From Bacteroidetes bacterium UBA2664 (lineage in GTDB: Bacteria; Bacteroidota; Rhodothermia; Balneolales; Balneolaceae), in the NCBI GenBank assembly GCA_002359315.1, contig DEMS01000032.1:2438-66437 (forward strand): a stretch of 64,000 nucleotides of DNA, in the 5' to 3' direction. Under the pieces are notes generated by a model that worked only from the letters and a program-made list of their open reading frames with translations, had not been told where the DNA came from and did not search any database. Positions 21,928 through 64,000 of the stretch are shown here, piece by piece. A program made the position numbers and the translations under genes. Numbering within the stretch: position 1 is the stretch's first letter; the number at the start of each line of letters is the position of its first letter.

Positions 21928-22025
21928 AACCCTGTTATTGGTTTACTTCATATGGACGCATATCTGAAATCAAAAACTCCAATCGAGATGTTTGCATCTG
22001 CTTGTTTGTGATCGAGTTTGAAGGA

Positions 22026-22145: not shown

Positions 22146-22146
22146 G

Positions 22147-22220
22147 TGGGCCCGGCAGGACTTGAACCTGCGACCAATCGATTATGAGTCGACTGCTCTA
22201 ACCAACTGAGCTACTGGTCC
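22147..22220 (-). tRNA. tRNA-Ile(CAT)-like copy at the left att junction, probably pseudo (acceptor mismatches)
   Basis: 74 nt, GGACCAGTAGCTCAG...CTCATAA...GGTTCAAGTCC...CGGGCCCA; 5' GGACCAG vs 3' CGGGCCC gives 2 mismatches. Confidence 0.75.
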
Positions 22221-22274
22221 AGTTACATTGTAAACTGCGATTTCCAACCTTATAAGCCAAAACTGAATCAAAAT

Positions 22275-22894: not shown

Positions 22895-22913
22895 TACTTA
22901 CATTGTGTAAGTA
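22895..22913. promoter_or_regulatory. Palindromic operator in the divergent repressor/early promoter
   Basis: TACTTACA-TTG-TGTAAGTA perfect 8-bp inverted repeat; core also at 22388 and 63856. Confidence 0.7.
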
Positions 22914-22926
22914 ACTAAATATAATT

Positions 22927-28626: not shown

Positions 28627-28848
28627 ATGCCCAAGGTAGAAACTAAGTCTATATCCCAAGTTCGTAAAGATAATTACTCCCAAGCCGTTGGTGAAGGCAT
28701 TACGGCAATTACCCTGAACGGGGAATTTGTAGGTGTTTTAATCACCTGTGGAAATTCATCACAGGAATTGGCATCCCTTCGCCACAAAAGACTGTTAGAC
28801 AATCCGGTTCACACCATTACCGAACTCACCAAGCAGGTGCTTCAGTAA
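28627..28848 (+). CDS. Small protein, weak Phd/YefM-like pattern
   Basis: SISQVRKD...AITLNGEFVGVLI. Confidence 0.4.
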   Translation: MPKVETKSISQVRKDNYSQAVGEGITAITLNGEFVGVLITCGNSSQELASLRHKRLLDNPVHTITELTKQVLQ

Positions 28849-29861
28849 TGCAGAGCGGTTACGTAAACATATTACCAGATACCCAGCAGCAATACACCAG
28901 AGCACGGGCTGTGGATGCTTCTTTGGGAGCATCCACAGTACCTCTTTCTACTCGACGCCAGGCGTACCCCGGTGTGGAAGGCGTGCTTTCGGCAGCCAGT
29001 AGGCTGGTTACCAAATATACTGGCGACGAGCGCATTCGCTCACTTGCCCTCAAAATTACAAGCACGATTCGGCGACACCGGCTTACAGGACAACCCGACC
29101 TGCGAAACATTGACGCTATTGCCTCTGCCATATACAAGTGGATGGTGCGCAACGTGAATTATGTGCGCGATCCGTGGGATGTCGAGCGTATTCAGTCGCC
29201 CTTTGTCACCATAACCCAACGGGCTGGTGACTGCGACGATCATGCTATTTTAGGTGCAGCCTTATTACAAAGTCTCGGTATTCAAACGGGCTTTCGCATT
29301 GTCTCGCGAACCGGACGCCACTTTGACCATATTTACGCGGTGTACCAATCACCTACCGGTTGGAAATCATTCGATACCACCGTACTGAAATATCCCGGTT
29401 ACGTATTTGACGAGCGGCTCATTAAAAAATCCAGGCACGTCACCAACCAGATGCCTGAAGGCTTGGGGCTTGATCCCATTACGCTACTCACCACGGCTAC
29501 CACAATGGCCAGTACCGGGATGACGCTTAAAAATACCTTGTCCAATATATTTGGAGCCAAAGATAAAGATGAGCGTCAAATGCGCGGAGCCCTGCGAGAC
29601 TATCTCATGCAGCGGGGCGTGCAATCCGAAGTGATCAGTCTTTCCCAAAAAGACAATGCCACCCTTCAGCGCTACGCACAGATTATAGATGAACTTGGAG
29701 CCCCGGCGGTTCAGCAACTGAATCGCTACGGGCAACTTTCCCCGGTTTGGGTTACTCAACAACAAGTAGCAAATAAAAACAAAAAAATGGGGCTCTATGC
29801 CGGTCTTGCCATTGGAACACTGGTTCTGATTGGTGGCGGGTATATGCTTCTAAACAAATAG
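28848..29861 (+). CDS. Transglutaminase-like (papain-fold) protein with C-terminal TM anchor, putative maturation protease
   Basis: YVRDP, GDCDD, HIY, WKSFD give a Cys-His-Asp triad; internal EGLG; C-terminal TM. Confidence 0.8.
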   Translation: MQSGYVNILPDTQQQYTRARAVDASLGASTVPLSTRRQAYPGVEGVLSAASRLVTKYTGDERIRSLALKITSTIRRHRLTGQPDLRNIDAIASAIYKWMVRNVNYVRDPWDVERIQSPFVTITQRAGDCDDHAILGAALLQSLGIQTGFRIVSRTGRHFDHIYAVYQSPTGWKSFDTTVLKYPGYVFDERLIKKSRHVTNQMPEGLGLDPITLLTTATTMASTGMTLKNTLSNIFGAKDKDERQMRGALRDYLMQRGVQSEVISLSQKDNATLQRYAQIIDELGAPAVQQLNRYGQLSPVWVTQQQVANKNKKMGLYAGLAIGTLVLIGGGYMLLNK

Positions 29862-29864
29862 ACC

Positions 29865-30287
29865 ATGAGTAAAAGTGGATTTATCATTCCCTTAGAGGAT
29901 ACTGTCATTGGAGAGGAAGACGCGGTGATTGCCGTAGCCATCAGTCCGGGACTCGGCAACTGGGAAGAAACCGACCCGTGCCGGTATGCCAATCAAAGTT
30001 GTAAAGGCAAAATGTTTGGCAAGCTGAAAAGCTGCCGACGTCAACGCGAGAAAAGTCAGGCGCTATGCAAAGCGCACGAAGCTTCCCTTCAAAAGAAAGC
30101 CCAGTGGGAAGGCCAGCGCGAGGAAATGATGCAGGCGCTCCAGACCAATCTTACCACCACCGCCTCCCAACAGAAAACAGCCAATTCGACCATGAAGTCG
30201 GGTATCGCTGTGGGGGGAGTCGCCCTTACCGGTGCCATTGCTTTGGCGGTTTTAATGCTGAAACGAAAAAAGAAATCTTCTAAATAA
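29865..30287 (+). CDS. Tail-anchored, Cys-containing putative virion membrane protein
   Basis: SGF...PGLG N-terminus; C-terminal TM plus KRKKK. Confidence 0.65.
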   Translation: MSKSGFIIPLEDTVIGEEDAVIAVAISPGLGNWEETDPCRYANQSCKGKMFGKLKSCRRQREKSQALCKAHEASLQKKAQWEGQREEMMQALQTNLTTTASQQKTANSTMKSGIAVGGVALTGAIALAVLMLKRKKKSSK

Positions 30288-30300
30288 GCAGGCCTGTCCC

Positions 30301-30624
30301 ATGACCAAACAACCCAGCGGTTACACCAGTTTTGATCTTCTCAACCAACGAGCAGCTACTGTTACCCAGCCTACCCAAACCAAATTTGGCTCGGCTTTAA
30401 CCTCTATTAGTGACCTCCTAAAGACCGCGACCGATACCGTGGTGACCATAGATGGGGTCGTCAACAAAGGCGGTAACAAGTCTGGAGGCGGGCAACCGGC
30501 GATGCTTTACCCAGGCCAAGGAGCACCTGCTCCCAGCGGCTCGGGAGAGTTGATCAAGTATGCGGGCATAGCCGGAATCGCCATTGGCGGTGGAATCATT
30601 CTACTCAAAGTGCTGAAGAAGTAA
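30301..30624 (+). CDS. Tail-anchored putative virion membrane protein
   Basis: PSGY N-terminus; Gly-rich C-terminal TM plus KK. Confidence 0.65.
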   Translation: MTKQPSGYTSFDLLNQRAATVTQPTQTKFGSALTSISDLLKTATDTVVTIDGVVNKGGNKSGGGQPAMLYPGQGAPAPSGSGELIKYAGIAGIAIGGGIILLKVLKK

Positions 30625-30626
30625 GT

Positions 30627-30896
30627 ATGCAAGCAGGACGAATTTCAACATTTCTGGATGGAGGCGTTCCAGGTGGCCATGCTCCTATGGTATTGCCAGA
30701 GGTAGAAGACACTTCCTACGAACAGCCTGATATGCAGGTCATCGAAATGGGCGAAGGCGAAGAGCCTACGGCCAAAAAACTATGCCAGCGACTTCAGGAG
30801 CAGCCGATTTCACTTTCGCAGTGGATTCGGGATAACCAGAACACCTTAATGATTGCGGGCGGCCTTTATGTGGGCTATCGCTTGCTAAGGAGGTAA
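30627..30896 (+). CDS. Tail-anchored putative virion membrane protein
   Basis: C-terminal LMIAGGLYVGY-RLLRR. Confidence 0.6.
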   Translation: MQAGRISTFLDGGVPGGHAPMVLPEVEDTSYEQPDMQVIEMGEGEEPTAKKLCQRLQEQPISLSQWIRDNQNTLMIAGGLYVGYRLLRR

Positions 30897-30897
30897 A

Positions 30898-31581
30898 ATG
30901 AACGCGCAATCAGGATATATCGACACCGGACTCGGGCAGCTCAACCTGTCCAGCAATATCATAAGCTCGGAGGCGGTAGAACTTCGCATCATCGGACGAA
31001 ACCCCGCCTCGGGGAACCCGCCCAGTGGGGTTCCGTTTTCCCTCGATCTTGAAATTGAAACTTTCCGAAACTGGGCTAAAGTGATTTTTGTGCCGTTTAT
31101 GGCCAGATGGGGGCAATGCCCCGACGCCCTGGTGGTGGTTCGCTCGGAGCAGACTGGATCGGTGTTAGGCTTCCAGCGTTTCCAAACCTCGATGATGGAC
31201 GGATGCCGCGCACAGGGACGAGTTCTCTTTGACCGCTCGTTTGTTCCCACCTCAGCCCATAAAGTAATTTTTGAAGTGTATCCCGTTGATGTGGAAATGA
31301 GCAGTATTTCCGCTTCCGATCTCATTGCAAAATCCACGCCTATTTCTCTCGACCTTGACCAGAAAACCGGCGAGCAGTCGGGGGTGTATTCTCCCCCCAC
31401 AGAGTCGTGGTACAAAATGCCCGAACTTGGGCCAGGTAATGCCCTTGGGGAAGTTAACACGCTACTCAAACGGGTAATCATTATATCATTTGCTGGCGCG
31501 GGGCTTTATTTCTTAGCCCCCATGCTCCCCGGACTTCGGGCAGGCATCAAAGCTTTAGCCCCAAAAGTAGGTTCCGAATGA
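30898..31581 (+). CDS. Beta-rich protein with C-terminal TM
   Basis: QSGYIDTGLG N-terminus; VIIISFAGAGLYFL TM. Confidence 0.65.
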   Translation: MNAQSGYIDTGLGQLNLSSNIISSEAVELRIIGRNPASGNPPSGVPFSLDLEIETFRNWAKVIFVPFMARWGQCPDALVVVRSEQTGSVLGFQRFQTSMMDGCRAQGRVLFDRSFVPTSAHKVIFEVYPVDVEMSSISASDLIAKSTPISLDLDQKTGEQSGVYSPPTESWYKMPELGPGNALGEVNTLLKRVIIISFAGAGLYFLAPMLPGLRAGIKALAPKVGSE

Positions 31582-31973
31582 GATCTGGGTATGTACCACA
31601 TACCGGCTCCGGCCTACACGGCATGGACGATTACCTGCAGCGCACCTCTCAGAACGCTTTCAAACTGTTTGCGGGCAAACTTCAGAGCGCCACAAGCGGT
31701 CGCCGTGGCCAGCTTGCAACGATGGGACTCAACCTGGCCAACCTAACCACCAGTAAAGCAGGCATCAACAAGGTATATGAGCAAAACGCCGGAGTCATTG
31801 ACGACTACTTCGAGTATGTGGATCTGGTGGCACTATCAGAAAAACTGGGCGTGGAAGAGGCGGTCTCGACGGGCGTGTCTCGCTCGCTGCTCAAAACCGG
31901 ATCAATGATTCTAATTGGCATGGCCATCGGGATGGCAGGACAACGAATATTTACAGGAAAAAGGAACCAATGA
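31578..31973 (+). CDS. Tail-anchored putative virion membrane protein
   Basis: MRSGYV...SGLHG; C-terminal TM. Confidence 0.6.
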   Translation: MRSGYVPHTGSGLHGMDDYLQRTSQNAFKLFAGKLQSATSGRRGQLATMGLNLANLTTSKAGINKVYEQNAGVIDDYFEYVDLVALSEKLGVEEAVSTGVSRSLLKTGSMILIGMAIGMAGQRIFTGKRNQ

Positions 31974-32282: not shown

Positions 32283-33536
32283 ATGGATAGCCAGAACACC
32301 ATGAGCGCCAAAGAGCTGGCAACCCTCAACATCAAAGGCATTAAAATAGCAAGCCCATACGGGGCACTTCTTGGAGAGCCAGAGAAAAATGCGGTCATTT
32401 TTATTTGGGGCGAAAAAGGAGCCGGAAAATCCACCTTCAGTTTGGGTCTGGCCAACGCGTTAGCCCAACACGGAAGAGTGGAATACATCCCCGCCGAAGA
32501 GCATTTCGGAAAAACCTTGGTGGATCGGGTAAAACGCTTAAACGCTACCCACTCGAACCTCAATTTCACCAAATGGAAATCCCTTACCAGCCTCAAAGAA
32601 ATTCTACTTAAAAATGGATCGGCATTCTGCGTGCTTGACTCCATCACTGTGATCGAAGCCAACGATAAAATGACGGTCGAACTGGCCCAGTGGTGCCGGG
32701 AGCAAGGTATTGGGTTCATCATGGTGGCTCACGCAACTAAGGACGGCAAGTACAAAGGCAATACCAGTATTGCCCACGAGTGCGACATCGAAATCAAGGT
32801 CACCAAAGAGGGCCTCGCCGAAACCGAAAAGAACCGCTATCAGGTGCTCAGCTCCATCGAGGTTCCCTTTACCTCCACCCGAAACAATGAATATGAAAAA
32901 GTAAAAACGGCTCCCGTGAAACGAGAAAACCCTGTTGACCTGCCCTTTAGCATTTCACTCAAAGAAATCGACAAACTCCACAAACTTCGCTCATGGAAAC
33001 GGGTGAATTCCCTGCTCGGCTCAAAGATGCCGTGTTACTCCAAACAGCATTCCGGGGAGTCCGAGCGGGCAACGCTGAGCATTCGCTACGTGCCGGACTA
33101 CTACAACAAACGCTATATCGTAGAGCTGCTCATTGACGGGGAGCTCAAAACCCAGATTTGCACCGAAGGAGCTAAAGGCGGGTTTGCCGCTTCCTGGGCC
33201 CAGCTGGTGAAAAAGCACGGCAACCTGGAAGTGCAGATTCTCGCCCAGGATCACGCGAAGAAAGTGTTGGGGGCACGAGAATACCGAAGGCAGGAAAAGC
33301 TTCAGAGTAAGAATTCAGATTGTCCGCCAGCAAGAAAATCAAACACAAAGAAGAAGCCAAAGCGAAAGCCTACTCCACCCACCAAGAAAACGGCCAAGAA
33401 AAAACCGGCGGTAAAGAAAACCAAACCGGTACCTAAGCCTAAAGAGCTGGCAACTCCAAAGCAGTCCGTGGATCTGGAAGCCGCTCGAAAAAGCCAAGCC
33501 AAACTCGACGCCTTTTTAGAAAAAGTACTTAGCTAA
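32283..33536 (+). CDS. RadA/Sms-like RecA-fold ATPase with Lys/Pro-rich C-terminal tail
   Basis: GEKGAGKST, AEE, VLDSI, HATKDG, HECD, KNRY; KKPKRKPTPPTKK tail. Confidence 0.75.
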   Translation: MDSQNTMSAKELATLNIKGIKIASPYGALLGEPEKNAVIFIWGEKGAGKSTFSLGLANALAQHGRVEYIPAEEHFGKTLVDRVKRLNATHSNLNFTKWKSLTSLKEILLKNGSAFCVLDSITVIEANDKMTVELAQWCREQGIGFIMVAHATKDGKYKGNTSIAHECDIEIKVTKEGLAETEKNRYQVLSSIEVPFTSTRNNEYEKVKTAPVKRENPVDLPFSISLKEIDKLHKLRSWKRVNSLLGSKMPCYSKQHSGESERATLSIRYVPDYYNKRYIVELLIDGELKTQICTEGAKGGFAASWAQLVKKHGNLEVQILAQDHAKKVLGAREYRRQEKLQSKNSDCPPARKSNTKKKPKRKPTPPTKKTAKKKPAVKKTKPVPKPKELATPKQSVDLEAARKSQAKLDAFLEKVLS

Positions 33537-33539
33537 GCG

Positions 33540-36500
33540 ATGCCAGTAGTTAAAACAAATATCGACCAGATTACGCACCTGTCCACCGGCGACTTTGATC
33601 ACTGGCTGGGCGACTGGGACTCCGATGGAATCGTCAATATTGATGATCCCAACCCGCTTACTCCGGGCGATACTGCCCCTGTGTCTGAGGCCGAACTGGC
33701 CCCGCAGATCAAGGCGGTGATTGAGACGAAGAACAACTACATCCCAGCCCTGAAGAAAGTCATGAAAGGCCTAATCGGGATGAATTTGGCGCTGGTCGTC
33801 AAGGGTCGCATTAAAGAAGTGTATTCCACTTTAGGGAAACTTATTCGCAAGCGGTTTCCGTTTACGGAAAAGATTGCCACCAAGTCTGGAGAAAAATACA
33901 CAACCGGCCTGACCGATGTGGCAGGCTGTATGGCGATTGCCGAAACGCAGGCGCAGGTGGATCAGATTGTGGAGCGTATCCAGTCGGGCGAGCTGGGTGA
34001 GGTGTGGGAACACGAAGACAAATATAAACATCCTGCAAACGGCTACCGCGCCCATCATTTTATCCTCGTAGTGGACAAGCTGTACCCGGTCGAAATCCAG
34101 GTAAAAACCAAACGGATGTCCATGATCTCGGCGGCCTCACACCAGCCCTATAAAGTGGGCCAGCTTAACGGAGCGCTGCTGGAAGAATTGACCCAGCTCG
34201 CGTGGAAAGCTGACAAGGGCGACACCGAATCGACAGAAAAATTGGAGCCGTACTTAGCAGATCTGGACGCTCTTGAAACTCAGCTTACTCTTCGATCTAA
34301 TCCAAGTGGAGAACTTCAGCAACTTCAGGCAGATTTTGAGCAGACCATAGGCAAACTGGCACTGGCGTTTCAGCTGGATAAGTTTCCAGCTGAGTACAAG
34401 CAGGAAGCCCTGGAGCTTTTCAGGGCACACGGGCGCATCATCGGCGTCGATTTTGATGGGGTATTTAAACAAGCCTCTACCAAAGAATCTAAGCCGATCA
34501 AGGAGCCCAAAAAGAAATCAGGCCAATCAATTTTTAGGTTTAGTGACACCGAATTGTCGGAATTTGCGCCCATCAAACTAACGGCCTCCGAGCGTCGCAA
34601 GGCCAACGAAGCGGCTATCGCCGTACTTCAAAAGGAAGACCGCGCGATTACCAAATCCGATATTGAAGTACTTCGTACGTACACCGGGGCGGGTGGTTTA
34701 GGATACACCGAATCCACCGAACATTCCAAGCGGGGTTTGTTGAATGAGCACTACACGTCCTACCCCGTGGTCAAACTCATCTGGGACAAACTTCAACAGA
34801 TGGGTGTTACGGGCGGCAATATTTTAGAGCCAGGTTCCGGCGTGGGTAACTTTGCCGGATTCCTTCCCGACCGCGAGAAATTCCGCATGGTCATGATCGA
34901 ACGCTCGGCCATTAGCTCCCGCATAGCACGTCTTTTGTACCCGATGCAGACCGTGCGCCACGAGAACTTTGCGGGCACCGATCTATCCCTGTATAACCTG
35001 ACCGGCGTGGTTGGAAACGTGCCCTTTGGGGACCTGAAAATTCATACCTCCCGCGACCCGCTGGCCCCGCTTAGCCCACGCATTCACGACTATTTTATTC
35101 TGAAATCACTGGACGCATTGAAGCCCGGTGGTTTCTTGGCCGTAATTACCTCAACCGGCACGATGGACAAAAAAGACCCGTCCATTCGGCAGGCTATGAT
35201 ACAACGTGCCCGCTTTGTCGGGGCCTACCGGTTGCCTTCAACGGCGTTTAAAGACAACGCCGATACCACGGTAACCACCGATATTCTGTTTTTCCAGAAG
35301 TATGGGGAGCACCAGGGAGCAATCCATCCGGATGTGGACTCCAAGCTCAACCGACTTTTTGCACAGGAAGATCTGATTGAAAGTCAGGTATCCTATAATG
35401 GTGAAACCTATACCGCTTTTTACAATCCCTTCTTCAAAGAGCATCCCGAGCATGTGTTAGGCGAACATATTCAGGGGCACCATGTACAGTTTTATTCCCG
35501 CATGGGCGTTAAAGGCGAGCTTTCCGAAGGCCTCATTCAAAGGGTGCTTTCTGACGGACTAACTTTTCCTTACGCGCTTCCGGGCAAGATGCCATTGTAC
35601 AACATACCCGATGACGGGATTATGCTCGACCTTCCAAGATCATACCATCCGGGGAATATCGTTTTCCACGAGAACCATTTTTACGAGAAACAGCGACGGT
35701 TTTTCAAGCGGCTTACGCTCAAAGGCGGCTCGGGGCTGGAGACCCGCATCGGCTCGGCTTGCCAGCTACTCGATAAATACGACGACTATATTACCGCACT
35801 GGCACAGGAAACCAGCGAAAAGGACGCCCTCCGCGCTGAGTTCAAGCAGTTGCTTGCGGGTCACATAAAGCAGTATGGTATTCCCGATGAAGACGAGGAC
35901 ATCCGCAAGGTGTTCAAGTTCGACAACCGGCTCTACAAGCTCACAACGCTCGTGAAGCGAGATCCGCTTAACGAGGAACTCGTGTATGCGGACATCATCG
36001 ACGCCGATTCCATGTTCAACCGAAACTACGTGCCTGCGGTCAAAGACTCCGATGATCTGGCTGAGCTGGCCATGTTCGGGCGCAGTATTGGTGAGACCTT
36101 AGATATTGACTTCTACCAGTCGGTGTACAAAGGGGGAACGGCGAGCAAAGAGGATCTGGAAAAAGCATTGGAAGATCACCCTGACTTTTACTGGAATCCG
36201 GCCACCGGAAACCACGAATTTCGCTACCAGTACCTGTCTGGTAACGTGCGCGAGAAACTGCAACTGGCCCAGGAGCACGAGCTGGAAAAGAATATTAAGG
36301 CACTCGGGGAAGTCGTGCCCGAATGGATCGACGTGTATAACATCACCGTGGACCCGCAGCACGTGTTCACCTATTTGCCCGCCAAAGCCATTGAAGAGTG
36401 GATTAAAGATGAAATGAATTACGATAAGGTGGAAATCGGCCTGGTCAAAGACAAAGCCGATCTGGGTAACCGGTTCTACATGAAGCTTCGAAAATGGGGC

Positions 36501-39500
36501 CGGTACATTTCTACGGGCGATGAGACCCCCGACGACGACAACCTCGGCTGGGGCGAGACGCCGTTTACGAAAATCATTACCTCTTACATTCAGGACAGCA
36601 CGTTTCCACTGAAGTTCTATGATGAGGACGATACCCTGATGCCGTCGATGACGCTCAAAGAGGCGCAATCCATGAAGGGCGAACGGGGCCAAATGCTCAT
36701 CGAGCGAGCGCGAAAAATACAGCGCCAAAACAACAACCGGATGCTCACGCACGTGCCCAAAAAGTTCAACAACTGGGTGCGCACCAAAGCTTCGTCCGAA
36801 GTCCGGAGCCTGATCGAATCCGCCTACAACCAGACCTATAACGCCGTAATCAACCCGCCCTTTGACGGGCGCACCCTTCGCGTTCGCGGCATGAGCGATA
36901 CCTTCTACGGGGTGAAAGACTTTACCGTGTACAAGCACAATCGCGCTATTGCCGAAAAGTTGGTCTGGAACGGTAAGGGTGCCAACTGCCACGATGTGGG
37001 GGCAGGGAAAACACTCGCTTCCATTATCACCTCCCAAGTGCTGCTCCAGCAGGGAGCCGCCCGAAAACCCATGTTTGTCGTGCCTGGAAAAGTGCAGGAA
37101 AAATGGGTGGAAGAATACCTGATGCTCTTTCCTGACGCCAAAGTCCTCAACATGAAAATGGCCTCTGGCGACAAGCACAAAGAACTTACGATGGCCCAGC
37201 TCTACAACTGGGACGCTATCTTTATCGCTGACCACGCTTTTAAATCGCTTCCGCTATCCCCAGCCGAACAGGCTCGTATTTTTCAAGAGCGCATCGACTA
37301 CTTCAACCAGATGTTGGAGAATTTCGAGGATCTGCTTGAGGAAGACGAGGCGATCTCGAAAGCGGTCAAGACCTCCATGATGAAACGCATGGAAAAGCAG
37401 ATGGAAGAATGGGAAACCAAACTCCGCAATGTGGCCCATGCCAAACGACTCGAAACCGATATTTTCTTTGACGAGCTGGGCGTGGACTGCCTGTTCTTTG
37501 ACGAGGCGCATTTCTACAAAAACGCCCTTGGTTCAGCCAAAGCCGCCAAGCTGGGAATCTCGGCAAACAAGCCTTCCCAGCGCGCCGAAGACGCCCTGCA
37601 AAAAACACGGTGGCTGTTCAGCAAAGTGGGCCATAAAAACGTGTTTGTCCTTACAGCGACTCCGGTAGTCAACTCTCCGGTGGAGGTATGGCACATGCTC
37701 AACCTGTGCGCCCCGGATTTGCTGACCAAATACGAAATTGAAAACCTCGACAACTTCATCAACCTGTTTGTCCGGGAAGAAGAAAAGATCGTCAAAAAGA
37801 CCAACGGGGAATACCGCTCCGAGCGCGTCGTGGCCGGGTACTACAACCTGCCGGAAATGCGTAAGATCATTGACGAGGTGATGGACATCAAGAGCTACGA
37901 TCAGCTCATCGGGTTTTACAAAGAGTTTCCCGATTACATTCAGGATGAATCCGGAAATACGATTAAAGGAAAAGACGGAAAGCCCAAGGTGCTCGAACCC
38001 AAATTCAAGCGCCCCAAGGCCAGCACCCGCAACGTGATTATTGAACCCAGCGAGCTGCATAAGCTTCTTTTTGATGACATTATCCTCCGAGCCAACGAGG
38101 TCATTGCCTGTATGAAAGACCGGCAGTGTGAGACCCGCGACAACTTCCTGGTAATTACCGGCGATGGTAGTAAGATTGCCACCGATCTGCGGGTGTACGA
38201 CAAAGATTTTGAAGGTATTGATCGCTCATACCTCAAGCTTGGAGCGATGGTGGAAAACGTGGCAGCTTCCTATGGTGCCCGTTCCAATCCGGCTCCCGAA
38301 ATGGTGCCCGAAGACCTATACGGCGACTACTTTCACCGGCCTGGCAGAGGACAATTGGCCGTCACTCCTCCGCACTTGCGAGAGAATCCTTCTCATATTG
38401 AAGTCATCACCAGCAAGGGCGTGGTAAAAGAAAAAAGTGGCTACTGGGTGGTGTGGGATGAAAAGAAAGAGGTTTATGAGCCCTTGCATATACTGGAGCC
38501 CAAAAAGGCCGAACACACGTGGAGCGAAGGCATCTTTGGCAACGAAAAAGAAGCTACCGAGCGCGCTAAAAAGCTAAACGCGGAGTGGGAGCAGATCAAA
38601 GCCAGTCGATCCAATCCAACCAGCCCAGCCATTCGCAACCAGATTATTTTCTGCGACTGGATCAGTCTTCATCAGTCACAGGGAGGTAGCTTCCATCAAC
38701 TCATCAAATCCGAGCTGGTCAAAGCTGGAATCCCCAAAGAACAGATTGCGATCATCAACGGGTCCATCATTGGCACGAGCAAAAACGGGGATGATTATTC
38801 CGTCAGTAGCAAAGACGATAAGGAAGCATTAAAGAAAGAAGTGCAGGATGATTTTAACCAGGGCAAGTACCGCGTGGTGATTGGTAACCAGTCGATTGCC
38901 GAGGGGATGAACCTTCAGAAGTGGACCACCGACATGCACCATATGGATGTGCCCTACACACCTTCGCAAATCCAGCAGCGCAATGGGCGCGGGCTTCGTC
39001 AAGGCAATCAGTACTCAGAAGTACAAATCCATTACTACCTGATGCAGGACTCTTTTGATCAGTACCGGCTGGAACTCGTCTCCAAGAAACAGAGCTGGAT
39101 TGATGACCTCTTCTTTGGCACCGGGCGTGAAGTCTCCACCGGTGGCGACTCGGAGTCGCTGGAATACGAGCAAATGGTTGCTGCTACCAACTCCGATCCA
39201 CGTGTAAAACAATTCTTTGAGGCTTTAGCGCAAAAGAATGTGCTCGACGACCGGATTGATAACCTTGAATCCGAGGTTCAGCGACTCCAGGCCAGCCAAG
39301 TGCAGGCAACTACTGATATCCAGGGAAAACAGGATCGCATGAAAAGCGTGGTAGAGCGCGAAACCGCCCTGCAAAACTCGAAGCTTCCCGATAACGCTGA
39401 AATCGCACTAAAGGAGAACCTGTTTGAGGCGCAGTACGGGTGGAACGGCGAGCCGTACCAACTCGATATCCAGTTGAGCTCCGACGCAAAACGCATCTCC

Positions 39501-40769
39501 GGCTACCGCATGAAAACCGTGCTCGATGTGCCCGATAACAACGCCAACGGGCGGGTGTGGTTTCACCTGATCCCAGACAGCAATATCCCTGACCGCTCGT
39601 TCTACAACAAACAGACGTGGGGTTCCATCAAACGCATGGCCTCCAAAGAGCTGGCCACCACCTTTGGGTGGACGCTGGAAGAAAAGACGGGGCAAGGAAA
39701 ATCCATCTCCGGCAACCTGGGCAACATCATTGCCACTGAGGAAGATTTTTACAATGAATACGGCATCGACATTGAAGTCGAGAAAGCTAAAAAAGACGAG
39801 GCCGGAAACGAGCAAAGCTTCAAGGCCATCAAAGAGTCCGCCGGGATGTTTACCATCAAAAAGTGGCAGCCGATTATCACCCGAAAACTGGCGGAGCTGT
39901 TTCTGGAACTCGAAAAAGCATGGATCAGAACTTCGGAATCACGAATGGAAATTCTAAGCAGTGAGCTGAAGCAAACTGAGAAAACACTGGCCGAACTTCA
40001 AAAGGTGCTGGCGTCCACAAAGGGCGAACTGGAAGCGGCCAAAACCGCTCGGGAGAACAACCAGAAGACCGTGATCGAACTCAACGATGTGGTCAACCAG
40101 CTGGTGGCGGTGAGCTACGACGACCGGAACGAACTGTATGAAGAGATCAACCGGATCGCCCCGAAATACAAGATCCGCAAGACCATTACCGTCCGTGATG
40201 TTGGGGCGCTGAAAGGCAATACCCCCAAAGGCGCGCCCCAGCTTCGTGAGAACAAAGCCCACAATATGCCTGGAAAAACATCCAAACGGCATGGCGTACT
40301 AAAAACCCTCTACGAAGAACCGCTGGTGTATTCCGGCATCGTCAAGGAACTGGAGTACATCGACGCCAAAGGCTACATGCAGCGCATGGAAGCTGAAAAG
40401 GATGATCTGGCAATGATCATTAACGCCAAGGGCACCACTATTTATGTGTTTCCAACAAACTTAATGAGGCTCTCAAAGGGAGCCTACAATGACCCGAAAG
40501 CCGCCGAAATGTTTGAGGAGTTTCATCATTTCCCGGCAGACGACTACGACTATGAGCTGTTTCCGCCTGCGGGCGAGAAACTGATCAGTGCCGGTTACGC
40601 CGACCGCATTATGTACGTGAGCGATAAGATTATCTACGCCGATGACGAAAAAGGCAAGGACAATCACTATTTCCACTACTTCGATGCGGGCAAGCGACCG
40701 GTGTTTAAATACGGTGATGTGTACATCATCGCTAACGTCAACATAGACGGCAGGGGCATTCTTAATTGA
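33540..40769 (+). CDS. 2409-aa multidomain protein: RelA/SpoT-like synthetase, N6-adenine methyltransferase and SNF2 helicase (DarB-like)
   Basis: GRIK, DVAG, GYRAHH, EIQVKT; LEPGSGVG, GNVPF; HDVGAGKT, DEAH.YKN, TATP, EGMNLQ, QRNGRG.RQG. Confidence 0.88.
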   Translation: MPVVKTNIDQITHLSTGDFDHWLGDWDSDGIVNIDDPNPLTPGDTAPVSEAELAPQIKAVIETKNNYIPALKKVMKGLIGMNLALVVKGRIKEVYSTLGKLIRKRFPFTEKIATKSGEKYTTGLTDVAGCMAIAETQAQVDQIVERIQSGELGEVWEHEDKYKHPANGYRAHHFILVVDKLYPVEIQVKTKRMSMISAASHQPYKVGQLNGALLEELTQLAWKADKGDTESTEKLEPYLADLDALETQLTLRSNPSGELQQLQADFEQTIGKLALAFQLDKFPAEYKQEALELFRAHGRIIGVDFDGVFKQASTKESKPIKEPKKKSGQSIFRFSDTELSEFAPIKLTASERRKANEAAIAVLQKEDRAITKSDIEVLRTYTGAGGLGYTESTEHSKRGLLNEHYTSYPVVKLIWDKLQQMGVTGGNILEPGSGVGNFAGFLPDREKFRMVMIERSAISSRIARLLYPMQTVRHENFAGTDLSLYNLTGVVGNVPFGDLKIHTSRDPLAPLSPRIHDYFILKSLDALKPGGFLAVITSTGTMDKKDPSIRQAMIQRARFVGAYRLPSTAFKDNADTTVTTDILFFQKYGEHQGAIHPDVDSKLNRLFAQEDLIESQVSYNGETYTAFYNPFFKEHPEHVLGEHIQGHHVQFYSRMGVKGELSEGLIQRVLSDGLTFPYALPGKMPLYNIPDDGIMLDLPRSYHPGNIVFHENHFYEKQRRFFKRLTLKGGSGLETRIGSACQLLDKYDDYITALAQETSEKDALRAEFKQLLAGHIKQYGIPDEDEDIRKVFKFDNRLYKLTTLVKRDPLNEELVYADIIDADSMFNRNYVPAVKDSDDLAELAMFGRSIGETLDIDFYQSVYKGGTASKEDLEKALEDHPDFYWNPATGNHEFRYQYLSGNVREKLQLAQEHELEKNIKALGEVVPEWIDVYNITVDPQHVFTYLPAKAIEEWIKDEMNYDKVEIGLVKDKADLGNRFYMKLRKWGRYISTGDETPDDDNLGWGETPFTKIITSYIQDSTFPLKFYDEDDTLMPSMTLKEAQSMKGERGQMLIERARKIQRQNNNRMLTHVPKKFNNWVRTKASSEVRSLIESAYNQTYNAVINPPFDGRTLRVRGMSDTFYGVKDFTVYKHNRAIAEKLVWNGKGANCHDVGAGKTLASIITSQVLLQQGAARKPMFVVPGKVQEKWVEEYLMLFPDAKVLNMKMASGDKHKELTMAQLYNWDAIFIADHAFKSLPLSPAEQARIFQERIDYFNQMLENFEDLLEEDEAISKAVKTSMMKRMEKQMEEWETKLRNVAHAKRLETDIFFDELGVDCLFFDEAHFYKNALGSAKAAKLGISANKPSQRAEDALQKTRWLFSKVGHKNVFVLTATPVVNSPVEVWHMLNLCAPDLLTKYEIENLDNFINLFVREEEKIVKKTNGEYRSERVVAGYYNLPEMRKIIDEVMDIKSYDQLIGFYKEFPDYIQDESGNTIKGKDGKPKVLEPKFKRPKASTRNVIIEPSELHKLLFDDIILRANEVIACMKDRQCETRDNFLVITGDGSKIATDLRVYDKDFEGIDRSYLKLGAMVENVAASYGARSNPAPEMVPEDLYGDYFHRPGRGQLAVTPPHLRENPSHIEVITSKGVVKEKSGYWVVWDEKKEVYEPLHILEPKKAEHTWSEGIFGNEKEATERAKKLNAEWEQIKASRSNPTSPAIRNQIIFCDWISLHQSQGGSFHQLIKSELVKAGIPKEQIAIINGSIIGTSKNGDDYSVSSKDDKEALKKEVQDDFNQGKYRVVIGNQSIAEGMNLQKWTTDMHHMDVPYTPSQIQQRNGRGLRQGNQYSEVQIHYYLMQDSFDQYRLELVSKKQSWIDDLFFGTGREVSTGGDSESLEYEQMVAATNSDPRVKQFFEALAQKNVLDDRIDNLESEVQRLQASQVQATTDIQGKQDRMKSVVERETALQNSKLPDNAEIALKENLFEAQYGWNGEPYQLDIQLSSDAKRISGYRMKTVLDVPDNNANGRVWFHLIPDSNIPDRSFYNKQTWGSIKRMASKELATTFGWTLEEKTGQGKSISGNLGNIIATEEDFYNEYGIDIEVEKAKKDEAGNEQSFKAIKESAGMFTIKKWQPIITRKLAELFLELEKAWIRTSESRMEILSSELKQTEKTLAELQKVLASTKGELEAAKTARENNQKTVIELNDVVNQLVAVSYDDRNELYEEINRIAPKYKIRKTITVRDVGALKGNTPKGAPQLRENKAHNMPGKTSKRHGVLKTLYEEPLVYSGIVKELEYIDAKGYMQRMEAEKDDLAMIINAKGTTIYVFPTNLMRLSKGAYNDPKAAEMFEEFHHFPADDYDYELFPPAGEKLISAGYADRIMYVSDKIIYADDEKGKDNHYFHYFDAGKRPVFKYGDVYIIANVNIDGRGILN

Positions 40770-40797: not shown

Positions 40798-41301
40798 ATG
40801 AAAGAACGCGTGTTCGCCAAGAACCCTTCCGAGCTACAAATCATCGAAAACCCAAACAAACGACGCAGTAACATGGCAAAACAAAGCAAAATCACTACCG
40901 AGAAGGCGGTCTCTGAATTCAAGCAGCAGGCTATCACCGCCGGATACATTCTTGGTGGGCAGGCTGTAGCAGCGCAGGTTAATGCCCTGGCCGTCCCCAT
41001 GCTGACAGGCAACGCATCTGCTACCATTCAACAAGCAACACGAGCGGGTATTCCACTTACCGCCGGTGTGCTCCTAACCCTTGTGACCAAGAACAAACAT
41101 CTTCGCGGTCTGGCAATGGGTATGGGCGTGCAAGGCGTAATGGAAGCCATCAAATTTATCATGCCCGACTGGACGCCCCAGCAAGGCCTGATGGATGGTT
41201 CCGGGTACGTGTATGACGGGGTCCCTCAGATTCCGGAAACCACCCATCATGTAGATGATGTGGAAACTTCAATGGAAGTGAGTAACACCATCGAAGTATA
41301 A
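40798..41301 (+). CDS. Membrane protein preceding the putative capsid genes
   Basis: Basic N-terminus with KNP/ENP, Gly/Ala-rich hydrophobic helices, GLMDGSGY. Confidence 0.65.
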   Translation: MKERVFAKNPSELQIIENPNKRRSNMAKQSKITTEKAVSEFKQQAITAGYILGGQAVAAQVNALAVPMLTGNASATIQQATRAGIPLTAGVLLTLVTKNKHLRGLAMGMGVQGVMEAIKFIMPDWTPQQGLMDGSGYVYDGVPQIPETTHHVDDVETSMEVSNTIEV

Positions 41302-41391: not shown

Positions 41392-42003
41392 ATGAGCAAC
41401 AAAATTAGCAAAAAGGCTTTAGTGCCTGCAACCGCACGCATCAAGACCTACTACGACACCAAGCAGGTCGTACAGAACGACAATGTTATCAACTTTTTCC
41501 CGGCCAATGCCACCCGTAAAGTCACCCGTGACAACTACGTGAACAACCCGTTTCCGGGTTCCATGAAGCGCCGAATTTTAGGCTTGTCCTTTGAACTCAC
41601 CAAGCAGTTCATCGAAGACGACGCGGCCAACGGCATCGACGCGCGAGCCATTGTGAACGGCCTCAAAGATGCGGCCATCTTACTTCAGGCCGACAACGAC
41701 AACAAGGAATTCCTCCGCGCCCCAATGAGTGAATTCTCCAATTTTGCTGGCACCGGTATCCAGCTTGCTTCGGCAACGGACAATACCGTGGACGCCGTGG
41801 CTTCTTTCAAGAGAGTAGCCACCATCAAGAGCGCGGGTGAATACCGCTTGGCCGATCCGTTTGATCTGGCTGTAAACCAGACGGTTTCCCTTGCCGTGCA
41901 CTTTGACGACGCTTCGGTTTTCCCTTCGATTGAAAACTGGACGCAATCAGGTCAAGGACAACTTTGGCTCCGGGCTTCTCTGGTAGTCGCAGAAGTTGAG
42001 TAA
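41392..42003 (+). CDS. Putative single jelly-roll major capsid protein
   Basis: Beta-strand pattern YYDT..NFF..N..P..ILGLSF...PFDLAVNQTVSLAVHF...LRASLV; followed by terminator; fold inferred only. Confidence 0.5.
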   Translation: MSNKISKKALVPATARIKTYYDTKQVVQNDNVINFFPANATRKVTRDNYVNNPFPGSMKRRILGLSFELTKQFIEDDAANGIDARAIVNGLKDAAILLQADNDNKEFLRAPMSEFSNFAGTGIQLASATDNTVDAVASFKRVATIKSAGEYRLADPFDLAVNQTVSLAVHFDDASVFPSIENWTQSGQGQLWLRASLVVAEVE

Positions 42004-42087: not shown

Positions 42088-42864
42088 ATGAAGATTATCT
42101 CCAATTTTTTACCTCCTAAAGAAAGTTCGGCCTACAATCCGGCCAAGTCGGTTGAGGTGCAACCGGGAGCAACGGCTCACCTTACCATGAACGGCATGGG
42201 TGGAGAGCGCTACGGCATCCGAAAGATCCTCCCGTTCAGCGCCAACATGAATGCCATTTTGATCTCGGCCCGCCTGAATGAAGACCTCTACCTGTTTCGC
42301 GATGTGCAGCTATCGGTGGTGCACAACCTGTTCAAATCCATTGACGGGCTTTTTGCGCCCTTCATCATTCAGAAGAACAACCACATCGTTTTTGAACTCA
42401 CCAATACCGGTGCCGCTAAACAGACCGTCAACATTCAGCTTGTCGGTTATGACCAGTTTGCCCTATCTAAACTCAGCGCGGCCTACCAGCAAATTGGAGC
42501 TTCGGTTCCCGTACCCCGGTTTCTGTATGGACATAGCACGGTTCCGGCAAGCGGGCTCAACATTGATCTGGGCGTGAAAAGCAAAAGCGTGGACGTGCAG
42601 GTTCGGCGCATGGCCATGAGCAGCAACCAGCCCGGAACAATTACCGCCTCGATGAAAGTGTACAACACCACGGTTCGCGATGAAGTATTCCTGGAGCAGG
42701 TGAACGATGAGTTCAACGACAAGTACATCAATGTGCCTTTTGTGGTGGGATCGAACGTTCCCTTTGATGTGTACGCTTCCAACTACGGTGCCCAGCCTGC
42801 AGAGGTAAGTTTCCTCTGCGAAAGCTACGTGCAGGCAAAAACCGGATTCATCCCAGCGGAGTAA
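42088..42864 (+). CDS. Putative double jelly-roll-like capsid protein (internal duplication)
   Basis: Two halves end PFIIQKNNHIVFELTN..TVNIQLVGY and PFVVGSNVPFDVYASN..EVSFLCESY. Confidence 0.5.
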   Translation: MKIISNFLPPKESSAYNPAKSVEVQPGATAHLTMNGMGGERYGIRKILPFSANMNAILISARLNEDLYLFRDVQLSVVHNLFKSIDGLFAPFIIQKNNHIVFELTNTGAAKQTVNIQLVGYDQFALSKLSAAYQQIGASVPVPRFLYGHSTVPASGLNIDLGVKSKSVDVQVRRMAMSSNQPGTITASMKVYNTTVRDEVFLEQVNDEFNDKYINVPFVVGSNVPFDVYASNYGAQPAEVSFLCESYVQAKTGFIPAE

Positions 42865-45851: not shown

Positions 45852-46238
45852 ATGAAATCATCTTCCGGATATATCTACAGCGAGGAAAGCTCCCCCGGTT
45901 TGGGGCGCATGATGCTCGACCCGACGCTACCCACCGAGTTGAATACGGCTATCCAACCGGTCTCTTCAATCGGTACAATTCGACCAACCATACCCATTTC
46001 TCGGGGGCTTTCTCCCAGAATCAGGAAACCGGTTCTGCCAAGGTTGCCCAAGATCAAACCACCCAAAGTGACTCCGGTGGTACGAGATTTGGCCAAAAAA
46101 CCAACAGCAGCTGTCCAACCCGCAACAACTAAAAGCGAGCCGGTGGCCACCCAGAAAAAACCGATGAACAAGAAGATGATCGCACTTGCCGGGGCCGGTA
46201 TTGTTGGAGCCGGAATCCTCTTTAAAATCTTACGCTAA
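45852..46238 (+). CDS. Pro/Lys-rich tail-anchored protein
   Basis: SSGYIY...PGLG; C-terminal TM. Confidence 0.65.
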   Translation: MKSSSGYIYSEESSPGLGRMMLDPTLPTELNTAIQPVSSIGTIRPTIPISRGLSPRIRKPVLPRLPKIKPPKVTPVVRDLAKKPTAAVQPATTKSEPVATQKKPMNKKMIALAGAGIVGAGILFKILR

Positions 46239-46254
46239 CCTAACCTGAAAACCC

Positions 46255-46488
46255 ATGAGTAAATCAAGCTATACCTCTGATAACGGCCTTGGATGTGGCT
46301 GCGGATGCAACGGAGCCGGAATCGGTTCTTCCCCCGTCGTGGACGTTAAAAACGCCGAAGCCGAAAACACCAAAATGGACTTGGTGGATACGGCCAAAAA
46401 GTACATCAATGGCGACGTGCCGATGAAGTACAAAGCCGCTGCCATTGCCCTCGGTGCTGGCTTTTTGTGGCTAAAGTTCAAGAAATAG
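46255..46488 (+). CDS. Small tail-anchored protein with CGCGC
   Basis: SSY..NGLGCGCGC; C-terminal TM plus KFKK. Confidence 0.65.
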   Translation: MSKSSYTSDNGLGCGCGCNGAGIGSSPVVDVKNAEAENTKMDLVDTAKKYINGDVPMKYKAAAIALGAGFLWLKFKK

Positions 46489-47742: not shown

Positions 47743-48123
47743 ATGAGCAAACAATCCTGTATTCGTGATGTAGCCGATCTGAACCAGATCAACCGCTGTA
47801 TTGATTCTATCCATGCGGTAGAATCATCCATCTTAAAACTCTCGGACATACTGAAACTGGCCGGGAATGATGTGCGCCTGAAAATTCTGTTCTTGTTGAG
47901 CACGGAGAAAGATTTATGCCCGTGCGATTTGAGCGATATTTTAGATATGACCGTACCGGCGGTATCACAACACCTGCGAAAATTGAAAGACGCCGGACTT
48001 TTAGATTCAAGAAGAGAGGGAAAGCTCATTTTCTATTCCCTGCAAAAACCTTATGACGATCTTTTGAAACCACTTTTCAACCAAATTGAAAACAATACCA
48101 TTATGGAGGTATTAGCCGCATGA
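47743..48123 (+). CDS. ArsR/SmtB family metal-responsive repressor
   Basis: RLKIL, LCPCDL, AVSQHLRKLK. Confidence 0.92.
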   Translation: MSKQSCIRDVADLNQINRCIDSIHAVESSILKLSDILKLAGNDVRLKILFLLSTEKDLCPCDLSDILDMTVPAVSQHLRKLKDAGLLDSRREGKLIFYSLQKPYDDLLKPLFNQIENNTIMEVLAA

Positions 48124-48746: not shown

Positions 48747-48750
48747 TAGG

Positions 48751-50388: not shown

Positions 50389-50407
50389 AAGAGTATCAAT
50401 AACCGTT

Positions 50408-51286: not shown

Positions 51287-51322
51287 GTTGGTTGGGGTTT
51301 ATTTTTTGTCAATAAGAATTTT

Positions 51323-62530: not shown

Positions 62531-63706
62531 TCACCGTAAGTTTGTCATCTTCATTTTTAATTTTCTTACAGTAAGATGAGTATATTTTTCCGTCACTTTT
62601 TGGCTTGAATGTCCAGCCATATAGCTTGCTTCAGCTGTATGAAATCCTTTCTCAATCCAAGTAGTAACTGCTTGGTGTCTCATTCCATGTAAAGTACGAG
62701 AGGTAGGAATACCTGCTTCTTTGCAGTAACGCTTAAATTCCCGATACACTCTCATACCACGAACCGGTTGGCCTTTTGTATTTCCACCGGTATAAATAAA
62801 CACATAATCACTGGGGATTATCTTACCACGAATCTTTAAGTACCCATTCAGTTCATTTTTTAATTCATTAATGATGGGGATCAGCCGTTCTTTTCGGCCT
62901 TTGGTGGGTGGTAGGGAAATGTAGCTTAATTCTCCATCTTCATAGATCAGGTTTTCACCTTTCAGTCCGGAGTAGGAAAGTTCAGGATCATAAGCCGCTT
63001 CATGTTTTCGGAGTCCACCATAGAAGTACAATGCCACAATAGGTTTGAACCAATGCTGAACCAATTTAGGGTCAAATTCGGGCAAATCTTTCTTTCTGGA
63101 TAGCTCTTCATCGAATTTCTTAAAAAGAATTCCAAGTTCTTCCTCAGAAATCATTTTAGGCCGGGTATTTTCTCTAATTCGGGGTAGATCCTGTTTCAGC
63201 GCAGGAAAGTAGTCCTTCTCCACAATGTTCTTTTTCAGCAAAAACTTCCACCAAGACCGGAAATGTCGGAAGTAGTAATGCCTTGTAGCTGAAGTAATGC
63301 CCTTTTTGAAGATCACATTCTCAAAATGGTAGCTTAAAACATTGGTTGGGTGTACATCCGATAACTCATTTAATTCCACAAAATGATCTAAAGCTCGCTG
63401 GTAGGCTCCAATGGTTGCCGGAGAGAGGTGGTTTTTTGATTTGTAGAAAAGCTCGATAGATTCGCTCACCGTGTTGCTGTCAGTGGTGTCATCACTGGTG
63501 TTCCTTTGCAAAACCTTCTTAGGATTGAATCCTTTTGAAAAGGGATTGATCTTGCCTAACGAATCCAGTTTTTCGAGTTCGGTTACCATTTTCTGAGCAA
63601 CATCCTTGTGTCGGGTGCCCAATGATTTTCGAACATTCTTTTTACCCAGTTCTTCAGAGTAAAAATTTACATAGTAGTATTTACCGCGCTTGATAAGAAA
63701 TGCCAT
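62531..63706 (-). CDS. int: Tyrosine recombinase (integrase)
   Basis: GLRK.E, TKG, HGMRH, GHSS, KYTH catalytic set; N-terminal arm-binding-like SLGT. Confidence 0.95.
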   Translation of the reverse strand: MAFLIKRGKYYYVNFYSEELGKKNVRKSLGTRHKDVAQKMVTELEKLDSLGKINPFSKGFNPKKVLQRNTSDDTTDSNTVSESIELFYKSKNHLSPATIGAYQRALDHFVELNELSDVHPTNVLSYHFENVIFKKGITSATRHYYFRHFRSWWKFLLKKNIVEKDYFPALKQDLPRIRENTRPKMISEEELGILFKKFDEELSRKKDLPEFDPKLVQHWFKPIVALYFYGGLRKHEAAYDPELSYSGLKGENLIYEDGELSYISLPPTKGRKERLIPIINELKNELNGYLKIRGKIIPSDYVFIYTGGNTKGQPVRGMRVYREFKRYCKEAGIPTSRTLHGMRHQAVTTWIEKGFHTAEASYMAGHSSQKVTEKYTHLTVRKLKMKMTNLR

Positions 63707-63928: not shown

Positions 63929-63933
63929 AATTG

Positions 63934-64000
63934 TGGGCCCGGCAGGACTTGAACCTGCGACCAATCGATTATGAGTCGACTGCTCTAACCAACTGAGCTA
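63934..64000 (-). tRNA. tRNA-Ile(CAT, lysidine type), 5' end beyond window; integration site
   Basis: TAGCTCAGTTGGTTAGAGCAGTCGACTCATAATCGATTGGTCGCAGGTTCAAGTCCTGCCGGGCCCA; Ile2 rather than Met inferred from likeness to ileX-type sequences. Confidence 0.85.

Follow-up and report, generated by a model that had tools for sequence, protein, structure and literature searches.

A giant candidate cargo protein with a predicted alarmone synthetase, R-x-N-P border tags and a constant C-terminal domain in an SSIP-1-like provirus of Balneolaceae

The giant gene and its enzymatic modules

We analyzed a 64,000-nucleotide stretch (the window) of contig DEMS01000032.1 from the Balneolaceae genome of Bacteroidetes bacterium UBA2664, in which a 41.8-kb provirus related to SSIP-1 (Salisaeta icosahedral phage 1) lies between two tRNA-Met repeats (Table 1). 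One open reading frame (ORF) of this provirus, free of internal stops, encodes a giant protein of 2409 amino acids (aa) that combines a RelA/SpoT-type synthetase, an adenine methyltransferase (MTase) and a SNF2 helicase with a C-terminal domain common to relatives carrying other cargo, and that contains a recurrent R-x-N-P (RxNP) tag. The gene sits gapless in a co-directional virion operon, 3 and 28 bp from its neighbours, at the place of SSIP-1 gp43, a protein of 2319 aa with which it has the last ~160 aa alone in common. Every region of the gene is under purifying selection: in comparisons with 9-10 relatives, the ratio of nonsynonymous to synonymous substitution rates (dN/dS) was 0.05-0.09 for the synthetase (9 relatives), 0.01-0.11 for the other domains, and 0.12-0.21 for the linker at aa 256-330.

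The domain set listed in an initial annotation of this DNA (synthetase, MTase and split helicase) is present according to Pfam, PHROGs and the positions of the motifs. Pfam matches above cut-off are RelA_SpoT, SNF2 and Helicase_C, and PHROGs of the DarB-like and DNA methyltransferase families cover most of the protein. The N-terminal region matches RelA_SpoT (PF04607) at aa 89-206 with 43.3 bits (gathering cut-off 27), as expected for the RelA/SpoT synthetase that had been proposed. Its motifs start at aa 90 (RIK), 126 (DVAG), 168 (GYRAHH), 185 (EIQVKT) and 201 (HQPYK), and RxK..S..K..RK, D126, GYRAHH, E185 and HxPYK are kept in 32 aligned members, the catalytic Asp and Glu included. The motif set, initially described as apparently complete, is thus there, but it departs from the canonical form in three places: other residues stand for the Arg of syn2 and the Ser of syn3, and the G-loop of the family reads D[K/F]Y. 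The DxDxDG start noted at the same time exists as a motif (DWDSDG, aa 25-30), whereas its calcium-binding reading stays weak; the window segment has no Pfam match, homologue L036 reaches 13.4 bits with the TSP_3 profile (cut-off 25), and a TSP3-like calcium site is at best weakly suggested.

When a profile of the synthetase family was compared with solved structures, RelP, RelQ and long Rel were matched with E values from 2.5e-10 to 1e-3 and CapRel with 0.035, and no chain recognisable as Tas1 or FaRel2 was found among the 24 rows at E≤10. Guanosine-type signatures have been distinguished from those of Apk2, which are GxN, RYT and YH at syn3, syn2 and syn4 (PMC12226406). The window synthetase has AHH, GCM and VK at these sites, so that the Apk2 signatures are absent, and its syn3 His and syn4 VK resemble the guanosine type rather than the GxN and YH of Apk2. 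The element encodes no hydrolase; HD_4 was matched only once in the genome, by a 751-aa frame that lies on a different contig (the genome is 81% complete, the element itself contiguous). The RelP/RelQ/Rel-like profile, the guanosine-type syn3 and syn4, and the missing hydrolase speak for (p)ppGpp more than for (p)ppApp or tRNA modification. We expect with good confidence that the synthetase is active, and regard (p)ppGpp as its product with a slight preference. A check for a toxSAS-type antitoxin found the ATPase gene and the gp44-like gene as neighbours; a novel protein antitoxin is conceivable. Searching phage-record proteins with the synthetase gave only matches at E≥0.04, and among seven stand-alone relatives of 141-450 aa, three were examined in full, with names that suggest fragments or broken copies of the giant protein.

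The MTase carries motif I (LEPGSG) at aa 429 and motif IV (GNVPF) at aa 492, and the helicase has Walker A at aa 1152, DEAH at aa 1321, and motifs III-VI at aa 1372, 1702, 1787 and 1813. In an alignment of the window protein with its 39 best homologues, these motifs are nearly invariant (GNVPF in 39 of the 40 rows, Walker A and LTATP in all 40). An adenine MTase is thus followed by a SWI2/SNF2 ATPase with intact motifs, and the DarB-like antirestriction PHROG (10089) is matched with an E value of 8.8e-171, both in line with the proposed likeness to the MTase-SNF2 fusion of P1 DarB. By analogy with P1 DarB, adenine methylation would probably serve antirestriction. The helicase is split, as had been seen, by an insert of ~110 aa (aa 1581-1693) within lobe 2 of an intact ATPase; its three RxNP tags surround an optional 72-aa passenger domain, and homologue P0036 has ART-PolyVal there.

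The border tag, the constant C-terminal domain and the variable cargo

RxNP occurs in the giant protein at aa 252, 1581, 1614 and 1690, with RENK at aa 2236, and the RadA-like ATPase carries its own RENP at aa 214. At the four RxNP sites R, N and P are kept and most neighbouring residues vary. Upstream of the C-terminal domain we counted 125 RxNP versus 8.9 expected, whereas permuted controls, with 6-8 occurrences, were not enriched; 16 proteins of less than 50% identity contain 47 versus 3.1 expected, and both sets show a 14- to 15-fold enrichment. The density in the 16-protein set is 1.70 per 1000 aa, compared with 0.115 in 1156 host ORFs. None of 96 tags falls inside a Pfam domain, where 18.2 were expected (44 proteins with matches). 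The tags use every synonymous codon, six for Arg, two for Asn and four for Pro, and because the codons vary freely, the signal is read on the protein. The same free variation ruled out a DNA recombination site or a target duplication.

Insertions in the ATPase and in the N-terminus of the giant protein are bordered by the tag on both sides, and tag-to-tag segments recur over their full length at different places and in different proteins. Across 17 loci, the tag-bearing proteins are the ATPase, the cargo, and the gp33-like and gp44-like proteins; no tag was found in 15 transglutaminase-fold (TGase-fold), 15 gp47-like and 11 SLT proteins, nor in the larger membrane-protein families of these loci. 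Several open frames start at or just before a tag (P0009-P0021, P0031, P0034 and SSIP-1 gp41). RxNP is a protein-level border mark of modules. In the same virus, seven small proteins (28848-31973 and 45852-46488) start with the leader S-x-[YF], in many cases with GLG behind it, and most of them have a C-terminal hydrophobic stretch, which is common among the small proteins here; this leader is a second, different tag.

A search with the C-terminal domain retrieved 245 clusters (50% identity) at E≤0.001, and 94 of the 150 listed scored at least 60 bits. In 90 of these 94 it ends the protein, at most 15 aa from the C-terminus. Its profile was found in 36 of 400 genomes of the class and in 12 of 401 of a phylum sample; this synthetase occurs in 25 of the 400, and 24 of these also carry the C-terminal domain. 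The giant protein had been called unusual for such a provirus, which these counts do not support, as a large cargo protein in this slot is usual in the virus group.

The C-terminal domain, listed in the initial annotation as an unknown domain of ~170 aa, spans aa 2253-2409. Its model is confident (predicted local distance difference test, pLDDT, 93; predicted template modelling score, pTM, 0.88) and shows a beta-rich unit. Y-x-S-D-K and Y-x-H-x-F are kept in 64-72 of 72 rows (Tyr2359 72, His2379 72, Ser2361 71, Lys2363 70, Asp2362 64). No Pfam, PHROG or NCBIfam model matched, and a PDB sequence profile gave a best E value of 0.039. A VIA fold search with the model against 48,161 chains returned as best match PilZ 4rt0_A (Z 4.3, root-mean-square deviation (rmsd) 3.1, 84 aligned) and nothing at Z≥5; Foldseek found nothing at E≤0.001 in BFVD or PDB, and no usable Atlas match was obtained. 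The modelled domain therefore has no clear structural match, which does not by itself prove a new fold. IMG/VR scans with this domain and with the gp47 homologue, whose reach is limited to close relatives, confirmed no relative.

The cargo ahead of the C-terminal domain was scanned for domains in 69 of the 150 listed clusters, selected by length. It varies among ArdC-N with MPTase, ddrB-ParB, LPD1, LPD3, LPD29 and ART-PolyVal, and the same slot holds zeta kinase, PBECR1, RelA, MTases, and the DarB-like MTase-SNF2. The LPD/ArdC/MPTase/ParB pool was seen in relatives, whereas the window's gene, which lies in the virion operon, has none of it. The RadA-like ATPase is joined in frame to the front of cargo and C-terminal domain at many loci. 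Within the MTase-SNF2 lineage, the N-terminal slot is occupied by the synthetase in 31 of 39 homologues and by a zeta kinase in P0035; it has no recognisable domain in P0031, P0034 and P0036-39, and P0032 is a fragment. In L059 the slot holds an ART.

Some members depart from these layouts. Many stand-alone C-terminal domains of 145-175 aa, ending T-x-R-G-I-x-G-like, are among the distant matches (P0224-P0281), and three long proteins of 3,177-4,086 aa (P0187, P0192, P0204) contain a LAGLIDADG domain in the helicase region, suggesting inteins. At L066:5892-8405, the MTase start is fused straight to helicase lobe 2 with ~1,200 aa missing, which looks like an internal deletion. The ATPase gene is in two frames at L012:8230-9997, and P0130 and P0133 break off early, in sequence foreign to the family; some copies are decaying or misassembled.

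The provirus and its relatives

The element has ~25 kb of viral core and ~15 kb of metal-resistance cargo. Repressor and replication genes come first, then a block of co-directional genes that reaches to 47643; beyond it lie the mer/czc-type cargo and the tyrosine integrase. At 41.8 kb it is not the small provirus initially described, whereas its tailless nature is borne out by the SSIP-1-like gene order and by the PHROG scan, in which no terminase, portal, HK97 capsid or tail gene was found among the 31 other element proteins; these gave only coiled-coil matches at E≥0.003 and lytic-domain matches.

Table 1 Features of the giant gene and of the provirus.
Feature	Position	Strand	Remarks
Giant cargo gene	33540..40769	+	2409 aa; positional counterpart of SSIP-1 gp43
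DxDxDGxxNxDDP motif, aa 25-39	33612..33656	+	Kept in all synthetase-bearing members
Module 1 (aa 1-251), predicted small alarmone synthetase, RelA/SpoT fold	33540..34292	+	
RxNP tag 1 (RSNP, aa 252-255)	34293..34304	+	End of synthetase module
DarB-type adenine MTase, about aa 331-640	34530..35459	+	LEPGSG, GNVPF
Middle region, aa 641-1130	35460..36929	+	Partial DarB-like PHROG alignment, no Pfam match
SNF2 ATPase, aa 1131-1580 (lobe 1 and first part of lobe 2)	36930..38279	+	
Lobe 2 insert	38280..38618	+	RxNP at aa 1581, 1614, 1690
Remaining SNF2 lobe 2	38619..39239	+	Motifs IV-VI
Coiled coils on both sides of an unassigned region, aa 1901-2235	39240..40244	+	Weak coiled-coil families only
Degenerate tag RENK, aa 2236-2239	40245..40256	+	RxNP here in more distant relatives
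Constant C-terminal domain, aa 2253-2409	40296..40766	+	Ends GRGILN; beta-rich; candidate virion anchor
Left attachment repeat in tRNA-Met	22146..22214	.	69 bp
TGase-fold Cys-His-Asp enzyme	28848..29861	+	SSIP-1 gp34 homologue; candidate maturation protease
RadA/Sms-like ATPase	32283..33536	+	SSIP-1 gp40 homologue
gp44-like protein	40798..41301	+	Conserved N-terminal Asn-Pro motifs
SSIP-1 gp45/gp46 homologue	41392..42003	+	Likely major capsid protein; E 6e-19, 2e-10
SSIP-1 gp47 homologue	42088..42864	+	Likely vertex protein; two predicted beta-sandwich domains, low-confidence model
Tyrosine integrase	62531..63706	-	
Right attachment repeat, second tRNA-Met copy	63933..64000	.	69-bp repeat; runs past window end

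Window genes match SSIP-1 gp33, 34, 35, 36, 40, 44, 45/46, 47 and 54 in the same order (phmmer). The C-terminal 179 aa of the giant protein match only SSIP-1 gp43 among 50,697 phage records (tblastn), and the TGase-fold gene also has its best phage-record match in SSIP-1. This phage contains a membrane and two capsid protein types, according to reviews (PMC6356626, PMC5332951), and GenBank labels its gp43, gp40, gp34 and gp44-48 'structural protein'. As the positional counterpart of the giant protein is annotated as structural and has the C-terminal domain in common with it, we consider packaging of the giant protein into the virion, which the initial annotation had supposed, likely by analogy.

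Close relatives with conserved gene order are found in Balneolaceae (Gracilimonas, Balneola, Rhodohalobacter, Fodinibius). gp44-like and/or capsid genes come immediately downstream of the cargo gene in all 13 loci of a first set for which downstream DNA exists, in 6 of 7 loci of a second set (one stops at a contig edge) and in 13 of 15 of a third. In the TGase-fold enzyme, the Cys motif is kept in 14 and the His in 15 of 15 sequences; in the gp44-like protein (18 rows), N9 is invariant and P10 and P19 are each kept in at least 90%. The model of the gp47 homologue (pLDDT 57) has its top match in HHIV-2 6h82_b (Z 8.6, rmsd 6.8, 110 aligned), level with beta-sandwiches that are not viral. The window has one gene of the gp45/46 capsid type, and two paralogues occur in SSIP-1, L057:14672-16013 and L066:3745-5069, so one- and two-protein capsids may coexist in this virus group.

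Attachment repeats were sought in six relatives, and a complete element was found only in G466 (~46 kb, integrase 95% identical); no second site was found in four 60-kb stretches and one contig-end stretch. The region between the last viral gene and the integrase (47743-62392) holds variable cargo, mer and czc-type here and other genes (19 kb) in G466. Several relatives (L072-L088) continue for more than 31 kb after the last viral gene without a second attachment site, and some copies of the element may exceed the capacity of a particle. Four to five direct repeats with 117-119 nt spacing that start like the tRNA-Met 3' end (16301-16712 and 22023-22141) are possibly relics of earlier integrations. 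Short repeats at both inner ends (22269-22408, 22897-22917, 63777-63876), out of register with the tRNA repeat, are candidate integrase arm or repressor sites. Copies that are ~70% identical lie on contigs labelled Pleurocapsales, Chthoniobacteraceae and Saprospiraceae (L011, L013, L014), which are probably misbinned.

Possible delivery of the modules and comparison with known systems

We read the giant protein, with the arguments evenly balanced, as a packaged, tag-cut, modular cargo polyprotein of an SSIP-1-like provirus that would shield incoming DNA and likely make (p)ppGpp. The chain would be made late with the particle genes, as its position suggests, and loaded into the particle through the C-terminal domain, for which the role of a virion anchor is fairly probable. 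It would then be cut at RxNP, an event that the sequences favour by a small measure, and the TGase-fold enzyme is the first candidate protease; its SSIP-1 homologue (gp34) is annotated as structural. The MTase-SNF2 core would stay nicked but folded and methylate the incoming DNA, an action proposed for DarB-type dyads (PMC5512222). The freed synthetase would give a short alarmone pulse that slows host growth functions at entry, and the host's own Rel would clear the alarmone, which we propose as the reason why the element has no hydrolase. More broadly, and tentatively, SSIP-1-like membrane viruses might have an effector-delivery system in which any domain placed between RxNP tags ahead of the C-terminal anchor is loaded and freed by a viral protease. 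If so, antirestriction enzymes, kinases, ADP-ribosyltransferases and an alarmone synthetase would be exchangeable cartridges for the virus, which here would deliver a ready-made stringent-response enzyme together with its DNA. A complex prediction for the C-terminal domain and aa 1-125 of the gp44-like protein scored 0.01 against a mark of 0.32, gave no answer and was not used as evidence.

Several points weigh against this polyprotein reading. The motif is looser than four letters, as RxQP (25) and RxNA (27) are also raised; 3 of 64 long members have no RxNP, L059 has none between ART and MTase, some domain borders are tagless, and the giant protein itself has a degenerate form (RENK) ahead of its C-terminal domain. 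The count outside Pfam domains is inflated by linkers, as these have a high Pro content in any case, and P-values are overstated because the homologues are related. Cutting would nick the ATPase, since three tags sit in helicase lobe 2, and the TGase-fold enzyme has an alternative candidate substrate in the SG[YF] leader of membrane proteins. The overlap with gp43, which has different cargo and a single RxNP, is limited to the C-terminal domain, and the 'structural' status of gp43 comes from a GenBank note alone. A C-terminal anchor is without precedent in the P1 system, where the DarB signal is N-terminal (PMC9024508). As to the synthetase, the syn2 Arg is missing in all 32 aligned members (Met in 30), all 32 have AHH rather than SxH at syn3, and signatures are poor predictors of the product because motif swaps left the specificity of Apk2 unconverted (PMC12226406).

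The tags within lobe 2 would be better accommodated if the protein were packaged and delivered whole, with RxNP as an uncut docking or sorting motif (for the ATPase, a scaffold or the membrane) and the activities tethered to the incoming DNA. P1 DarB occurs in virions as a protein of 250 kDa and has a short signal for targeting (PMC9024508), N4 vRNAP, ArdC and TraC1 enter unprocessed (PMC5512222), and the repeated NP motifs at the gp44-like N-terminus would suit such docking. However, a single sorting signal per chain would be enough, yet nearly every inserted module is tagged on both sides, and several open frames start at or just before a tag; we find whole delivery rather unlikely. If the chain is cut, the protease could instead be the C-terminal domain itself, freeing the modules upstream while the TGase-fold enzyme handles the membrane proteins. 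The domain shows enzyme-like conservation in its 72 rows, is always C-terminal when fused, and has stand-alone versions of 150-170 aa in distant relatives, but Ser-Asp-Lys in a row is not known as a protease signature and a conserved surface patch would fit a binding domain equally well, which makes this option improbable.

With the same packaging, the synthetase might use another acceptor (the tRNA CCA end, ATP/ADP or a host-immunity nucleotide signal) and act as a host-directed toxin or anti-defence enzyme. The invariant changes in syn2, syn3 and the G-loop fit this, as do the zeta kinase (P0035) and ART (L059) in the same slot of relatives and the (p)ppApp made by virion-linked MuF-Apk2 (PMC12226406). 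The profile, however, prefers RelP, RelQ and Rel, with CapRel weak and Tas1 and FaRel2 unrecognised among the 24 rows at E≤10 of the solved-structure search, the Apk2 signatures are absent, and iapK and aph1 follow apk2 whereas this element has no hydrolase gene; another acceptor is rather unlikely. Expression in the lysogen as a defence system, in which the MTase-SNF2 part would detect a competing element and the synthetase would halt the cell, is very improbable: prophage small alarmone synthetases such as CapRel do work in defence (PMC12691689), and NCBIfam models for the DISARM DrmD and DpdE helicases gave weak matches far under cut-off, but the gene is gapless within the co-directional virion operon, has its C-terminal domain in common with a structural protein, and its slot in relatives holds antirestriction domains.

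Little is known about the way in which tailless, membrane-containing phages load enzymes and deliver them with their genome, and no mechanism has so far been available for SSIP-1 gp43. The packaged, tag-cut polyprotein that we prefer amounts to a testable code. Its components, the constant C-terminal domain, the border tag of four residues and the candidate protease, all occur both in a phage in culture and in proviruses from named strains of Gracilimonas and Fodinibius. The tag predicts exact fragment ends for virion proteomics, and the unassigned tag-bounded modules form a list of candidate anti-defence proteins. The DarB/ArdC/DdrB antirestriction toolkit would be extended to viruses of a putative jelly-roll type, and the giant protein would be an example of an alarmone synthetase that a virus particle likely delivers.

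Giant proteins with several unrelated enzymes in one mobile-element chain are a published kind, as the initial annotation had recognised: polyvalent proteins (Iyer et al. 2017, PMC5512222) already include RelA/SpoT domains, SMS/RadA of Bacteroidetes and MTase-SNF2. MTase-SWI2/SNF2, RelA/SpoT, SMS/RadA, ArdC-N, MPTase, ddrB-ParB, ART and LPDs all occur in the slot described here, whereas that study describes polyvalent proteins mostly from portal-terminase phages and conjugative elements, and places those with RelA/SpoT in Spirochaete and epsilonproteobacterial phages; the words 'tailless', 'jelly', 'Salisaeta' and 'Balneola' were not found in its main text. The portion of Yutin 2018 (PMC5894146) that was examined describes no such group, and searches of open-access paper listings turned up no account of the RxNP tag, of the C-terminal domain or of SSIP-1-like viruses with polyvalent cargo. 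Tailed phages are known to encode DarB-like proteins (PMC9024508, PMC11437467), and virion-linked and exported synthetases have been reported (PMC12691689, PMC12226406).

P1 DarB has the MTase-SNF2 architecture and motifs of the giant protein and differs in being packaged by an N-terminal signal (PMC9024508). MuF toxins such as Apk2 similarly join a constant virion-linked domain to variable effectors, a RelA-fold enzyme included, but there the constant MuF domain is N-terminal, the product is (p)ppApp and iapK and aph1 follow (PMC12226406); in the window protein the synthetase comes first, the constant domain is C-terminal without a MuF match in Pfam or PHROG, and no hydrolase is encoded. RelP and RelQ are the best solved matches, with syn1, the catalytic Asp and Glu and the syn3 His kept, whereas the window protein has the syn2 Arg and syn3 Ser replaced, the G-loop Tyr shifted, an N-terminal acidic loop and 2150 further residues. 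SSIP-1 gp43 is likewise encoded by a giant gene between the RadA-like ATPase and gp44-47, with an adenine MTase and the C-terminal domain behind RENP; it differs by a ParB domain, another MTase type, the lack of SNF2 and synthetase, and one RxNP, and SSIP-1 has two gp45/46 paralogues versus one in the window. What is new here is the RxNP tag, together with the exchangeable cargo and the constancy of the C-terminal domain.

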